From: an uncultured archaeon
GTDB lineage: Archaea > Hadarchaeota > Hadarchaeia > Hadarchaeales > Hadarchaeaceae
Direction: 5' to 3'
NCBI GenBank assembly: GCA_937921735.1
Contig: CAKZTQ010000016.1
Location: forward strand, 1-64,000
Length of the DNA stretch: 64,000 nt
Shown here: in pieces, positions 6,624-14,583 of the stretch
Layout of the letters: every line of letters begins with the position of its first letter
Numbering within the stretch: the first letter of the stretch is position 1
Notes under the pieces: generated by a model
Told to the model about the DNA's origin: nothing
Databases searched by the model: none
The model's input: only the letters and a program-made list of their open reading frames with translations
Program-made: the position numbers and the translations under genes

Positions 6624-6878
6624 CTAGTCCCCCTTCCTCCACAGCGTCCGTCCGCCCACCTCTATCCGCAGGACCCGATGGTAGGGGATCTCCACCTCCC
6701 CTTCTCGCGAGGCCACCCGCATGAAGGCGCGGCCCAGCTCGAGTATTTCGTCTCCCCTTATCACCCGCACGTCGCCAGGGGCTCCCCTGTGCGCTATCGT
6801 CACCCTCGCGTCCCTGAGGCTGAGCCTCGGGTGCCACCTCAGCCTGTTTAGGGTCTCCCTAGCCCCCATGCCGACCAT
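6624..6878 (-). CDS. DUF504/MJ1316 RNA-repair-domain protein
   Basis: RETLNRLRW...HRGAPG...IPYHRVLRI. Confidence 0.85.
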   Translation of the reverse strand: MVGMGARETLNRLRWHPRLSLRDARVTIAHRGAPGDVRVIRGDEILELGRAFMRVASREGEVEIPYHRVLRIEVGGRTLWRKGD

Positions 6879-6939
6879 GGCTCCATCCTCGGGCCTGCGT
6901 TTATCGGTATCGCTCGCCTCGCCCGCGCTCCCGTTGGGG

Positions 6940-7328
6940 GGTCGTGTCCTAAATAGGACATGGGGCTCAAGGAGGGTTGCTCGTGGCTCTCAATTAGGAC
7001 GGCCGGTGTCACAAATAGGACACACGGCGTCGGTTTTCGGCGGGTTTAATCGCTCCATCATGCGGCGATGTCCTAAATAGGACAGTGGGAAAAGCAAGTG
7101 TCGCAAATGGGACGCGAACGACATCGCAACGTGGCCAGCTTTGAACGAAAAGCGGATTGCTGTGGTCAAGATTCGTTCGAAATCTGAGATGCTGTATCAA
7201 ATGAGACGAAGTGTCCTAATTCAGGGCATAGGGGATCGTCGAGAGGACGCTCGCCGGTCGGGTGGGCGTCGAGATGGATCGCGGGGGCTCGCTTGAGTGC
7301 CGCAAATGGTCGTGTCCTAAATAGGACA
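6940..7328. repeat. Cluster of 16-bp imperfect palindromes TGTCCTAAATAGGACA
   Basis: Exact copies 6945-6960, 7069-7084, 7313-7328; variants 7007-7022, 7099-7114, 7193-7208, 7212-7228, half-site ~6988-7000. Confidence 0.9.
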
Positions 7329-7389
7329 CAACGCCAAGGCGCCGGCGGTGGTTTTATCCCCAGCGCGCGAACGAAATTGCGGGCGGCTC

Positions 7390-8025
7390 ATGATCTCCTA
7401 CGTGTTCCTGCTGGGGCGCCCCGGCTCCGGGAAGTCCGCCGTGTACGGGTTGATGGGCGAGCGCATGCTGAGGGAGGGTTTGGCCAGGGAGGTCATGCGC
7501 CTCGACGACTTTCCGATACTCAAGCAGATCGTCGACGAGGACGTCGAGTTCAAGCGCCACGTGAGGAAGGAGGGCGGGTTCGAGGTGACGGACCTCTCGA
7601 TGCTCGACGAGGTGCTCAAGCGCATGGACGGCCAGCTAAAGTCGCTGAGGGGTCCGGGGAGGGTGATCTTCGTCGAGTTCTCTCGCGACAGCTACGCCCA
7701 CGCGCTTCGGAACTTCAGCCGCGAGGTGCTCGAGCGCTCGTTGGTGGTCTACGTCTACTGCCCCTTCGAGGTCTGCCTGCGGCGGAACGAGAGGAGGTTC
7801 AGGGAGGGCGGCAAGGGGCTAGACGACCACATAGTGCCCAGGGATATGATGGAGAGGTATTACAGGCGGGACGACTACGAGGAGCTGCTGCTCAGGTCCG
7901 AGGACGAGCTCAAACGTCGCTCCCCCTCGCCGCTCGTGGTGATAAGGAACGACGTAGACGATATGCGAGCGCTTGAGGCGGAGGTGGAAAGGGCGCTTGC
8001 CTTTCTAAAGGGGTTAATAAATTAG
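7390..8025 (+). CDS. P-loop nucleotide-kinase-like protein
   Basis: VFLLGRPGSGKS Walker A; lid-like CLRRNERR. Confidence 0.7.
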   Translation: MISYVFLLGRPGSGKSAVYGLMGERMLREGLAREVMRLDDFPILKQIVDEDVEFKRHVRKEGGFEVTDLSMLDEVLKRMDGQLKSLRGPGRVIFVEFSRDSYAHALRNFSREVLERSLVVYVYCPFEVCLRRNERRFREGGKGLDDHIVPRDMMERYYRRDDYEELLLRSEDELKRRSPSPLVVIRNDVDDMRALEAEVERALAFLKGLIN

Positions 8026-8795: not shown

Positions 8796-10719
8796 CCCGA
8801 ACGTCGGCAAGAGCGCGATCTTCCACCAGATGACGGGCGCCGACGTCATCATCTCGAATTTTCCGGGCACCACCGTCGAGATCCTCGAGGGAAAGGTTAG
8901 GCTGGGCGAGCGGGAGGTCAGGGTGATGGACCTCCCCGGTATCTACTCCCTGGGCGCGGTGTCGCAGGACGAGCTCGTGGCGAGGAGGGTGATCCTGGAG
9001 CAGGAGCCGGATGTCATCGTCAACATAGTCGATGCCTCCAACCTCGAGCGCAACCTCTACCTCACGCTTCAGCTGCTGGAGCTGGGCTACCCCATGCTCG
9101 TCGTGCTCAACATGTACGACGACGCGCTGAAGAAGGGGATGCGCCCCGACCCCGAACTCCTCTCGAGGAAGCTTGGGGTGCCGGTGGTCCCGACGGTCGC
9201 CACGAGGGGGGAGAACGTCTCCGTCGCCTTCGACGCCGCCCTCGAGCTGGCCTCGGCGGGGAGGCGCCCGAGGAAGGTGTTGAGGATGGGCAGGGACATG
9301 GAGAAGGCGATAGGGGAGCTCAGCGAGACCATTCGCAGGCATCTCGCTCGAACGCCGTTCCATCTTCCGGCCAGAGCCCTGGCGATCAGGCTCCTAGAGG
9401 GAGACGCGCAGCTCGTCGAAGTGGTCGCCTCCCTGCCCAAGGGCGAGAGGGTGCTAGCGAAGGCGGATGAGCTGGCGAGGGAGATAAGGGAGCGCCACGG
9501 GGAGCCGGCGGCGCTGAGGATAGCTAGGGAGCGCCACGGCATCGCCAGCTTGATCTCGAAGGAGGTCACCGAGTACGTCAGCGTAAGACCGACCCTCTCG
9601 CAGAGGTTGGGCGAGCTGACGACCGGCGCGGGCACGGGCACCCTCGTGATGTCCGCGGTCTTCGCCTCCCTGCTGGCGCTGCTCATCTACGGAGGAGGCC
9701 AGCTGGAGGTGGTGGTGGTAGGCGCCTACGAGAGGTACCTCTCCCCCGCCCTGAGCTGGGCCATCTCCCGCGTTCCCTCGCCGGCCCTGCAAGAGGTGCT
9801 GGAGGTAGGGGTCAACGGGAGCATCGCGGGGATACTTTCCGTCGTGATCCCCTACATCCTGGTTTTCTTCCTGGCTCTAGCCATCCTCGAGGACACAGGC
9901 TACCTCCCGCGAATGGCCTTCGTGATGGACTCCGCCATGCATAGGATCGGCCTGCACGGGAGGGCGATAGTGCCCATGCTCGGAGGCTTCGGCTGCAACG
10001 TGCCGGCGATAATGGCGACGAGGGTGCTCGCCACGAGGCGAGAGAGGTTCATCTCCTCCTTCCTGATAGCGATGATCCCCTGCTCGGCCAGGACGGCGGT
10101 GATCTTGGGGGCGGTGGGCTCCTTGCTGGGCGCGAGGTACGCGCTGGCGATCTACGCCATCGTCCTCTCCCTCATCTTTCTGGTCGGCCTCCTGCTCAAC
10201 AGGGCACTCCCCGGAAGGGTGTCGGGCATGATCATGGAGATGCCGCCGCTCCGCATGCCCACGCCAAAGCCCGTCCTATTTAAGACGTGGATGAGGATGC
10301 GGGGCTTTCTCCTCTTCGCCGCCCCCCTGCTGATCGCGGGCAGCTTGGTCGTGGGCGCGCTCCAGGCGTCGGGCGCCCTCCACGCGATGGTCGAGCCGCT
10401 CTCCCCCCTGACGACGGGCCTCCTCGGCCTGCCCGCGGTGGCGATAATCCCGCTGCTCTACGGCTTCATAAGGAAGGAGGGGGCGCTGGTGCTCTTGGTG
10501 GCGCTCGCGGGGACCACGGACTTGGCGACATTCATGTCGCCGCTCCAGCTGTTCGTCTTCGCCCTCGTGGTGGCGATCTACATCCCCTGCGTGGCCACGA
10601 TCGCGGTGCTCGGGAGAGAGCTTGGCTGGAGGGATGCGGCGCTGATCACCGTAGCCACCTTCTCGCTAGCTTTAGTCGTCGGCGGCTTGGTCAACCACCT
10701 GAACCCCCTCGGGCTATGA
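8752..10719 (+). CDS. feoB: Ferrous iron transporter B
   Basis: GNPNVGKS, NFPGTTVE, DLPGIYSL, LEDTGYLPR, GFGCNVPA, PCSAR. Confidence 0.96.
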   Translation: MTGRGADIVMALAGNPNVGKSAIFHQMTGADVIISNFPGTTVEILEGKVRLGEREVRVMDLPGIYSLGAVSQDELVARRVILEQEPDVIVNIVDASNLERNLYLTLQLLELGYPMLVVLNMYDDALKKGMRPDPELLSRKLGVPVVPTVATRGENVSVAFDAALELASAGRRPRKVLRMGRDMEKAIGELSETIRRHLARTPFHLPARALAIRLLEGDAQLVEVVASLPKGERVLAKADELAREIRERHGEPAALRIARERHGIASLISKEVTEYVSVRPTLSQRLGELTTGAGTGTLVMSAVFASLLALLIYGGGQLEVVVVGAYERYLSPALSWAISRVPSPALQEVLEVGVNGSIAGILSVVIPYILVFFLALAILEDTGYLPRMAFVMDSAMHRIGLHGRAIVPMLGGFGCNVPAIMATRVLATRRERFISSFLIAMIPCSARTAVILGAVGSLLGARYALAIYAIVLSLIFLVGLLLNRALPGRVSGMIMEMPPLRMPTPKPVLFKTWMRMRGFLLFAAPLLIAGSLVVGALQASGALHAMVEPLSPLTTGLLGLPAVAIIPLLYGFIRKEGALVLLVALAGTTDLATFMSPLQLFVFALVVAIYIPCVATIAVLGRELGWRDAALITVATFSLALVVGGLVNHLNPLGL

Positions 10720-14410: not shown

Positions 14411-14583
14411 TGATACACGCGTGTCATGACATACGTATGTCATCGATTCGCGACGTTTTTCTTGACATACGTGTGTCATTGACCCTCCAACGCTTGCAGC
14501 TGACACACGTGTGTCATGGGGGACGAGAACACCCGGACAAGTTTTCGCCAAGAGCGGCCGTCGAGAGTGACACACGTATGTCA
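14411..14583. repeat. Cluster of five 16-bp palindromes TGACAYACGTRTGTCA (parS-like)
   Basis: Copies at 14411-14426 (variant), 14427-14442, 14463-14478, 14501-14516, 14568-14583, between convergent genes. Confidence 0.92.

Follow-up and report, generated by a model that had tools for sequence, protein, structure and literature searches.

The window analysed here is a 64,000-nucleotide stretch at the start of a contig (G000:C16:1-64000) from a 1.06-Mb metagenome-assembled genome (MAG) of an uncultured member of the Hadarchaeota. The MAG has 60 contigs and a G+C content of 57%, and it is 83% complete. An intergenic array of short palindromes separates two divergent genes, which encode an MJ1316-domain protein and a P-loop kinase-like protein (Table 1). 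Each gene has a putative TATA box. The sequence TTTATC at 6900-6905 would serve the MJ1316-domain gene, 39 nt from the first palindrome, and TTTTATC at 7353-7359 would serve the kinase-like gene, 24 nt past the last one.

Table 1. Sites, genes and related features. Positions without a prefix refer to the window; C numbers without a G number are contigs of the same genome.
Feature	Position	Strand	Remarks
Left neighbour, 84-aa MJ1316-domain protein (PF04457)	6624..6878	-
Class-A site, exact TGTCCTAAATAGGACA, left array end	6945..6960	+	30.8 bits (weight matrix)
Class-A site TGTCACAAATAGGACA, left-arm variant, 2 mismatches	7007..7022	+	27.6 bits
Class-A site, exact TGTCCTAAATAGGACA	7069..7084	+	Sequence match and weight matrix
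Probably decayed class-A site TGTCGCAAATGGGACG, 4 mismatches	7099..7114	+	13.2 bits; G001 counterpart is a strong site
Relic copy TGCCGCAAATGGTCGT, abuts last site	7298..7313	+	Same relic retained in G001
Class-A site, exact TGTCCTAAATAGGACA, right array end	7313..7328	+	With 5 preceding bases, repeat of 6940-6960
Block of 4 sites and spacers	6945..7159	+	85% identical to G001:C43:2114-2336
About 135 bp missing from G001 copy	7160..7294		Lower G+C; sub-threshold relics only (7193, 7212)
Right neighbour, 211-aa P-loop kinase-like protein	7390..8025	+	Weak AAA_18/KTI12 matches
Isolated class-A-like site CGTCTTAAATAGGACG within feoB reading frame	10272..10287	-	20.7 bits
Class-B array, 5 copies of TGACAYACGTRTGTCA	14411..14583
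Class-A cluster	C16		Window array
Class-A cluster	C15:17202/17229		Upstream of aIF5B
Class-A cluster	C17:22709-22923
Class-A cluster	C19:11787/11804		17-bp period
Class-A cluster	C11:117144/117236
Gene 3, Cas2-like, 81 aa	C17:22456-22698		Preceded by 109-aa partner gene 2
Class-B arrays elsewhere in the genome	C32:2783-3281; C4:2594-2805; C45:28416-28664
Class-B Cas2-like paralog	C32:2838-3011		Inside C32 array
Single conserved class-B sites	L111:2006-2021; L117:2004-2019		Orthologous loci L107, L110, L113
Class-D-bearing element copies	Loci L130-L154		E.g. L131:1307-1860
Paralog palindrome TGACAAAGGTTTGTCA	G023
Paralog palindrome TGTCACACCTGTGACA	G012; G003 (twice)
Paralog palindrome TGTCCCATATGGGACA	G023
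Paralog palindrome TGACATAGCTATGTCA	G013, G011
Paralog palindrome TGTCTCAWWTGAGACA	G026, G040		Two other families

The array stands out clearly from chance. Searching both strands of the window for TGTCCTAAATAGGACA with up to three mismatches gives 8 matches; the mean in shuffled windows is 0.25, and none of 100 shuffled windows reached 8. The initial annotation counted about seven palindromes. The array itself is real and the three exact copies that were reported are confirmed, but the count was generous: besides the exact copies there are one strong and one weak variant, plus relics. Start-to-start distances between the sites are 62, 62, 30 and 214 bp. The 21-nt direct repeat described at the two ends, GGTCG followed by the site, is exact (6940-6960 and 7308-7328). 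A common orientation was also correctly noted, as the AAAT centre lies on the + strand in every copy whose centre can be read.

Sites can be scored with a class-A weight matrix built from 53 sites of other genomes. Four window sites reach 27.6-30.8 bits, compared with 13.0 bits for the best chance-like match. The site at 7099-7114, at 13.2 bits, is on the edge of the background, and the copies proposed near 6985, 7193, 7212 and 7298 fall below it with less than 8 bits each. Two of the weak copies, at 7099 and 7298, are probably decayed sites, because a homologous block in a congener (G001) has a strong site at the one place and the same relic at the other. A 17-nt relic at 7212 is inverted relative to the other copies.

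Class-A sites of at least 20 bits occur 15 times in the genome, and 14 of these lie within five intergenic clusters. The site inside feoB is the only strong one outside intergenic DNA. The class-A consensus is TGTC-(C/T/A)(T/C)-AAATAGGACA. Of 24 other genomes in the family, 10 contain the 16-mer with at most one mismatch, and none of 16 genomes from other families of the order does; a reversed control pattern gave a single match among the 41 genomes searched. Relatives carry co-oriented class-A arrays with up to 8 copies. The motif is therefore neither absent from related MAGs nor a single site in a metabolic regulon, the two outcomes that the initial annotation named as speaking against its view.

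The interior of the window array, by comparison, was sought beyond genus g1 and found in g1 only. This limitation points to the 16-mers as the functional units and argues against a conserved non-coding RNA. Rfam has no match near the array, the single match being at chance level (E 0.98). The RNA fold z-score of the array is -5.2, as expected from its palindromes. Contigs of a relative that is 90-95% identical (runs X1 and X2) break inside the array. Homologues of the kinase-like gene are present in three of five other genomes searched; none of their 6 loci has class-A or class-B sites, which argues against a conserved regulon. More generally, the genes next to arrays have no common function.

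Repeated sites that cluster in a long intergenic region between divergent genes, around a core of lower G+C, could mark an origin of replication, or an array that serves as a centromere or for loading of a ParB/Noc-type protein, as was first suggested. Both archaeal ORB sites bound by Orc1-Cdc6 and parS sites bound by ParB form clustered intergenic repeats of this kind. A 130-bp stretch of A+T-rich DNA on C17 is bordered by a pair of sites to the left and a pair to the right, which face in opposite directions, and on a 147-kb contig the cumulative GC-skew minimum (C11:116000-118000) coincides with the class-A pair. However, the window copies are co-oriented, and inverted boxes around an A+T-rich element are limited to C17. 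The skew minimum does not recur at other arrays; on 5 of 6 contigs examined there is no consistent GC-skew turn at the arrays. An origin or centromere is hardly tenable when one motif forms five intergenic clusters in a 1-Mb genome instead of a single landmark, when sites occupy 25-nt gaps between genes and stop codons, and when array position is not conserved between genera.

The motif is also unlinked to either Orc1-Cdc6 or ParB, and it stands at many loci. All 45 relatives (45/45) carry orc1/cdc6 genes, which lie apart from the arrays and from the gene cassette described below (in G007, on a different contig from the cassette), and repeats of this kind were absent next to orc1 in 4 relatives. 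Cdc6_C has no match in the 83% complete MAG that contains the window. Both orc1/cdc6 genes, carried by all 45 family relatives, are missing from this MAG. A ParB/KorB/Noc-like binder is not supported: the only ParB_N match above cut-off (C31:5517-5777) has no motif nearby, and no class-A or class-B sites with up to three mismatches occur on C31 or on C6, where there is a weaker ParB_N match below cut-off.

A different candidate emerges from the genes that flank the arrays. When these genes are clustered, two of them recur together: gene 2, with 107-109 aa, and gene 3, with 81 aa. Gene 3 resembles Cas2. It scores 23.7 bits against the Pfam Cas2 family (PF09827; cut-off 23.8), over the N-terminal 40 residues only, reaches E 1.1e-6 against the PADLOC Cas2 profile, and scores 17 against the NCBIfam cas2 family TIGR01573 (cut-off 24.5). 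The YDI...Q.SVW/F motif is shared with Cas2, and the Asp that closes strand 1 does not vary. The structural model of gene 3 has a pLDDT of 85. Its best solved matches in Foldseek are Cas2 chains, followed by VapD, all of them weak (E 1.4e-2 or worse). A VIA search with the model gives generic matches only, the best at Z 7.2; Cas2 structures follow at 6.0 and 5.5. Gene 3 also has Atlas neighbours that carry Cas2.

Gene 2 belongs to no family in Pfam, NCBIfam or PADLOC. Its model has generic ferredoxin-like matches only, in Foldseek and in VIA (Z up to 7.7), and its best Atlas match, 0.82, is below the useful range. Searches for HTH or RHH families found none for gene 2 or gene 3, and both models are ferredoxin-like. 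The proposal of a dimeric HTH protein thus survives in part: the sites look like the targets of a dimeric, sequence-specific protein, but no binder of the HTH, ParB, KorB or Noc type was found.

Gene 3 is found in 23 of 46 family genomes (E up to 1e-3). Among 13 loci that were fetched, 10 have class-A-type sites: one separates genes 2 and 3, and between one and five follow immediately behind gene 3. Two more have a variant motif, TGTCAAACGTTTGACA, at those same positions, and one has no sites beside the gene. The site between the two genes occupies the 25-30 nt gap of an apparent operon. The Cas2-like family as a whole has few members: when 1.84 billion representatives were searched with a profile, 94 matched at E up to 1e-3, and 48 of these, mostly 66-90 aa long, reach E up to 1e-10. 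Seven of ten matches that were looked up are on contigs of at most about 1.3 kb.

Other members of the family are associated with other palindromes. At least eight palindrome classes can be distinguished by sequence, and the second array of the window is one of them. Their general form is TG(T/A)C-N8-G(A/T)CA, 16 bp long and distinct for each Cas2-like clade. Paralogs of classes B, C, D, E, F and H stand amid their own palindromes. Across 15 genes from 8 classes, a site overlaps the start codon in 2 and lies 9-10 nt ahead of it in 8, so that 10 of 15 have an autoregulatory-type site at their own start. At the other end, a site lies on the stop codon in 11 of 15 genes and no more than 7 nt after it in 3 more.

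The association of genes with sites can be measured by requiring at least two related 16-bp palindromes within 400 bp of a gene. This strict test is passed by 23 of 36 distinct Cas2-like matches, compared with 29 of 2025 windows from the genome under study. The 29 passing windows form 18 regions, at least 7 of which are these arrays themselves. Most of the 13 misses have asymmetric class-A sites, which are invisible to the test, or are at contig ends. L052 clearly departs from the rule, and L036 is free of sites up to a contig end 389 nt away. On metagenome contigs the same test is passed by 33 of 37 loci and by 0 of 52 control windows, taken at least 500 bp away on the same loci.

Palindrome class also follows the Cas2-like protein tree. 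The class labels change 12 times on the tree, compared with a mean of 19.5 after shuffling, and none of 200 shuffles was as low as 12; kin share labels in this test, and related genomes are not independent samples. Class A forms one clade (12 of 12 rows, support 92/88). The co-variation of gene and site could partly reflect linkage.

The second window array, at 14.4 kb, belongs to class B. Its likeness to the first array had been pointed out, and it has five copies of its own palindrome. Recognition by a second paralog had been suggested as well, and a Cas2-like paralog does lie inside the class-B array on C32. This paralog reads ACG in place of the ATG of its relatives, shifts frame near codon 58 and lacks the usual stop, and it may be a pseudogene or an error of the MAG. 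Despite its degenerate appearance, 14 strict class-B sites persist in the genome. Their half-sites are 5 TT, 2 CC and 7 mixed (6.7 mixed expected), and orientations are mixed within one array. Single class-B sites are also kept at an orthologous spot between convergent genes in five genomes, which belong to genera g7 and g8. No Cas2-like gene was found within 2 kb of these sites or elsewhere in the five genomes, whose incompleteness as MAGs may hide genes.

The reading that we prefer, and to which we would give about an even chance, is that the window array is a gene-less class-A cluster of duplex-DNA sites bound by a Cas2-like dimer. The likely binder would be the candidate Cas2-derived protein encoded on C17. 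To our knowledge, Cas2 proteins are known as nucleases or scaffolds and not as sequence readers. In this lineage each Cas2-like clade has its own palindrome, which brackets its own gene, and a few intergenic regions carry additional arrays with 2-8 copies. Under the proposed mechanism, a homodimer would sit on double-stranded DNA with one monomer per outer half-site, the centres of the half-sites being about 11 bp apart; in class A it may act together with a partner protein. A site at the protein's own start codon would lead to autoregulation, and arrays would be occupied cooperatively. Recombination or slippage between repeated sites would let arrays grow, shrink and move. Because the outer sites of the window array are 39 and 24 nt from TATA-like boxes, occupancy could modulate both divergent genes. 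The outcome of occupancy could be autoregulation together with modulation of neighbours, or purely selfish maintenance.

Several features favour sites in duplex DNA. The outer TGTC and GACA quartets are about one helical turn apart, and Arg and Lys abound in the predicted first helix of gene 3 (residues 14-26). In class B the two half-sites change independently of each other, with both orientations present in one array, and class A has no compensatory changes. Because the window array lies upstream of both putative promoters, its transcription is not expected. The class-A sites are, however, asymmetric: among the 53 sites of the weight matrix, positions 5 and 6 vary and positions 11 and 12 are fixed. 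A plain homodimer does not explain this asymmetry. Together with the partner gene 2, which is found in class A only, it suggests a heteromeric reader made of the products of genes 3 and 2; the predicted complex of the two has a score of 0.02, which speaks neither for nor against binding. Further observations also count against the preferred reading: class-B sites persist with a degenerate paralog, single class-B sites stand without a nearby Cas2-like gene, and the neighbours of arrays lack a common function.

The Cas2/VapD fold family includes ribonucleases, and the palindromes might instead work in RNA. Hairpins in a transcript would then be bound or cut by a Cas2/VapD-type endoribonuclease that controls its own mRNA at start and stop, with the arrays as RNA decoys or antitoxin-like repeats; type III toxin-antitoxin pairs and Cas6 processing would be comparable. 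Besides the Foldseek matches of gene 3, this would account for sites placed over the stop codon and over either the start codon or the ribosome-binding region, and thus inside the mRNA, and for the site in the operon gap between genes 2 and 3. Single class-B sites just after the stop codons of convergent genes are also consistent with it. So is TGATACACGTGTGTCA, which outside genus g1 is oriented so that its mismatch becomes a U-G wobble on the sense strand of the gene. We nevertheless consider an RNA role unlikely. The 53 class-A sites have no compensatory change, as the left arm varies and the right arm is fixed, and each class-B half-site varies on its own, with both orientations in one array. 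Like the window array, 2 other class-A clusters are located between divergent genes and ahead of the putative promoters, and the class-A sites preceding aIF5B have an antisense orientation relative to the genes on either side. The lack of an Rfam match argues in the same direction.

An RNA role would also recall type III toxin-antitoxin systems (ToxIN), in which a small nuclease-like gene lies beside an array of short repeats. The present system likewise has a small nuclease-like gene beside a short-repeat array, in a module found on mobile DNA. One locus goes further: a very divergent Cas2-like gene in G057 (contig C20) is preceded by four exact 34-nt tandem repeats with a near-palindrome in each (L057:2225-2345), as in ToxIN-like loci. 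Exact tandem periodicity is seen at this one locus only; the window and the class A-F loci have no such repeats. In addition, arrays here also occur far from the gene and upstream of promoters, and the ToxIN toxin has a different fold.

Arrays change rapidly between close relatives. An example can be found in two orthologous regions, C19 in this genome and C38 in congener G001 (92% identical over 5.4 kb), which have 2 and 5 tandem 17-bp units, respectively. The number of sites after gene 3 varies from about 6 in G014 to 1 in G053. The window array has a displaced counterpart in G001. Positions 6945-7159 and 7295-7328, spacers included, are 85% and 94% identical to G001:C43:2114-2366, and that block lies upstream of aIF5B, a place that is not orthologous to the window array. 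The aIF5B locus of the present genome has a single site exactly where G001 has site, block and site. No ortholog of the flanks of the window array was found in G001. Either the block moved, or it was duplicated and then lost. Compared between congeners, the spacers evolve like neutral DNA. The suggestion of recombinase sites is thus borne out to the extent that the sites are break and join points of rearrangements between close relatives.

Larger units move as well. G003 has two 336-bp copies, 99.1% identical, with the layout site-site-promoter-gene-site. Their homology ends at the terminal sites, and their sole gene is Cas2-like. In one metagenome, a class-D cassette is part of an element of 495-555 bp with 14-bp terminal inverted repeats, GTAYGTATTTAGCT, present in 12 complete copies, at least 10 of them 95-99% identical. 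The element contains only a 66-aa Cas2-like gene and 4-5 class-D palindromes. Target duplications are perfect over 8 bp in 8 of the 12 copies and match at 7 of 8 positions in 3 more. Of 15 flanks tested, 14 are unrelated, and the flanks have a lower G+C content. The terminal repeats and target duplications imply a transposase acting from elsewhere. In G053 (contig C8), an 846-bp insertion of low G+C splits gene 3 after about codon 12 (L029:3246-4091). It encodes a putative secreted protein of 173 aa, and the array downstream is down to one site.

Some different factor of the host, perhaps a recombinase or a regulator unrelated to Cas2, could also recognise the sites, or they could be repeats that propagate themselves. 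The Cas2-like gene would then be a passenger that co-diverges with the sites by linkage. Rearrangements that start and stop at sites, including the 336-bp copies that end at terminal sites, are consistent with this, as is an "empty" aIF5B locus that keeps one site where a "filled" one has site, block and site. The same holds for congeners that differ in tandem copies (2 and 5) or array size (about 6 and 1), for single class-B sites that persist without a nearby gene, and for a class-D cassette on an element whose transposase is elsewhere. A shared factor would, however, keep all classes to one consensus, yet at least eight inner sequences track the protein clades. Moreover, the 336-bp unit has no gene but the Cas2-like one, and the exact placement at start and stop codons is kept across classes. 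This alternative is for these reasons distinctly unlikely.

Conventional operators of a small regulon, read by an HTH or RHH protein and with the Cas2-like gene as one target, would fit palindromes of typical operator length. By eye, the sites end 15-35 nt upstream of TATA-like boxes in all five class-A clusters of the genome (5/5). This explanation is very improbable nonetheless. The Cas2-like gene travels with the sites and no candidate factor gene does, the functions of the neighbours are unrelated, array positions are not conserved, and arrays move as whole blocks, spacers included.

A stronger version of the Cas2-like reading goes beyond binding. The protein of roughly 70 aa might read, and perhaps nick, its own palindrome and so drive the excision, copying and re-insertion of site-bounded DNA, including its own 336-bp cassette. 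Arrays like that of the window would then be stacks of gene-less cassettes, a "clustered irregularly spaced short palindromic repeat" system free of Cas1. We regard this version as possible but rather unlikely.

The system can be compared with several known ones. With CRISPR-Cas it has in common that Cas2 is the nearest sequence relative, with a ferredoxin-like fold, and that clustered short palindromic repeats lie beside the gene. CRISPR repeats are about 23-50 bp long with unique spacers of near-constant length, whereas the palindromes here are 16 bp long and start at irregular distances of 17 to over 200 bp, with 17-95 bp outside the window. In CRISPR adaptation cas1 adjoins cas2; there is no cas1 at C17 or C32. 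The only Cas1 match of the genome is at C7:710-1558, and CRISPR repeat arrays with a period of 71-73 bp are on C21 and C45. Arrays of one repeat at several loci without a gene are a further difference from CRISPR, and so is the neutral evolution of the spacers.

The closest system in logic is REP/RAYT, in which a protein has cognate repeated sites. In bacterial REP/RAYT systems (REPINs), short palindromes of one class lie on both sides of their single-copy gene, and several such classes may be present in one genome. Flanking of the gene by its own palindromes, intergenic clusters, fast changes in copy number and coexisting classes are all found here. There are differences as well. RAYT is an HUH/Y1 transposase of the IS200/IS605 type, and the flanked gene here is Cas2-like according to Pfam, PADLOC and fold. 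Furthermore, there are about 15 strong copies per class and genome, arranged head to tail and not as inverted pairs.

For the mode of binding, an analogy is offered by papillomavirus E2 and EBNA1, whose small alpha/beta domains are ferredoxin-like and dimeric; each half-site of a 12-18 bp palindrome is read by one helix, and the sites form arrays. These are viral origin and tethering proteins, and their likeness to the proposed mechanism is one of analogy only; no sequence match or significant fold match to E2 or EBNA1 was obtained.

Judging from literature listings and abstracts, in which neither a pairing of Cas2-like proteins with arrays of palindromes nor repeats in Hadarchaeota came up, the system appears undescribed: small Cas2 relatives in hot-spring archaea, each with its own 16-letter palindrome. 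With it, the Cas2 fold would gain a role beyond CRISPR, the class-specific recognition of short palindromes, and the question of how Cas2 became associated with palindromic repeats would be open to testing. If the Cas2-like protein does drive its own cassette, the system may be a living analogue of a pre-CRISPR step that tied a Cas2-like protein to palindromic repeats. If binding is confirmed, at least eight pairs found in nature, each consisting of a 70-aa protein and its 16-bp site, would provide a compact set of orthogonal DNA-binding parts.

The palindromes are also a dynamic repeat family in an uncultured archaeal phylum. Several sites and genes are at contig ends or on contigs of 0.5-1.3 kb. 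The family breaks assemblies and can thus distort the gene content of MAGs.

Two further stretches of the genome have repeats of their own. At C28:6790-7610, a stretch of low G+C is bordered on either side by three repeats of roughly 61 bp, the two sets being inverted; this may represent another kind of mobile element or a binning contamination. Contig C57, on which no Cas2-like gene was found, has two TGWC...GWCA palindromes, TGTCGGATATTCGACA at 48-63 and TGACGAATATCCGTCA at 191-206, which may represent a further class.
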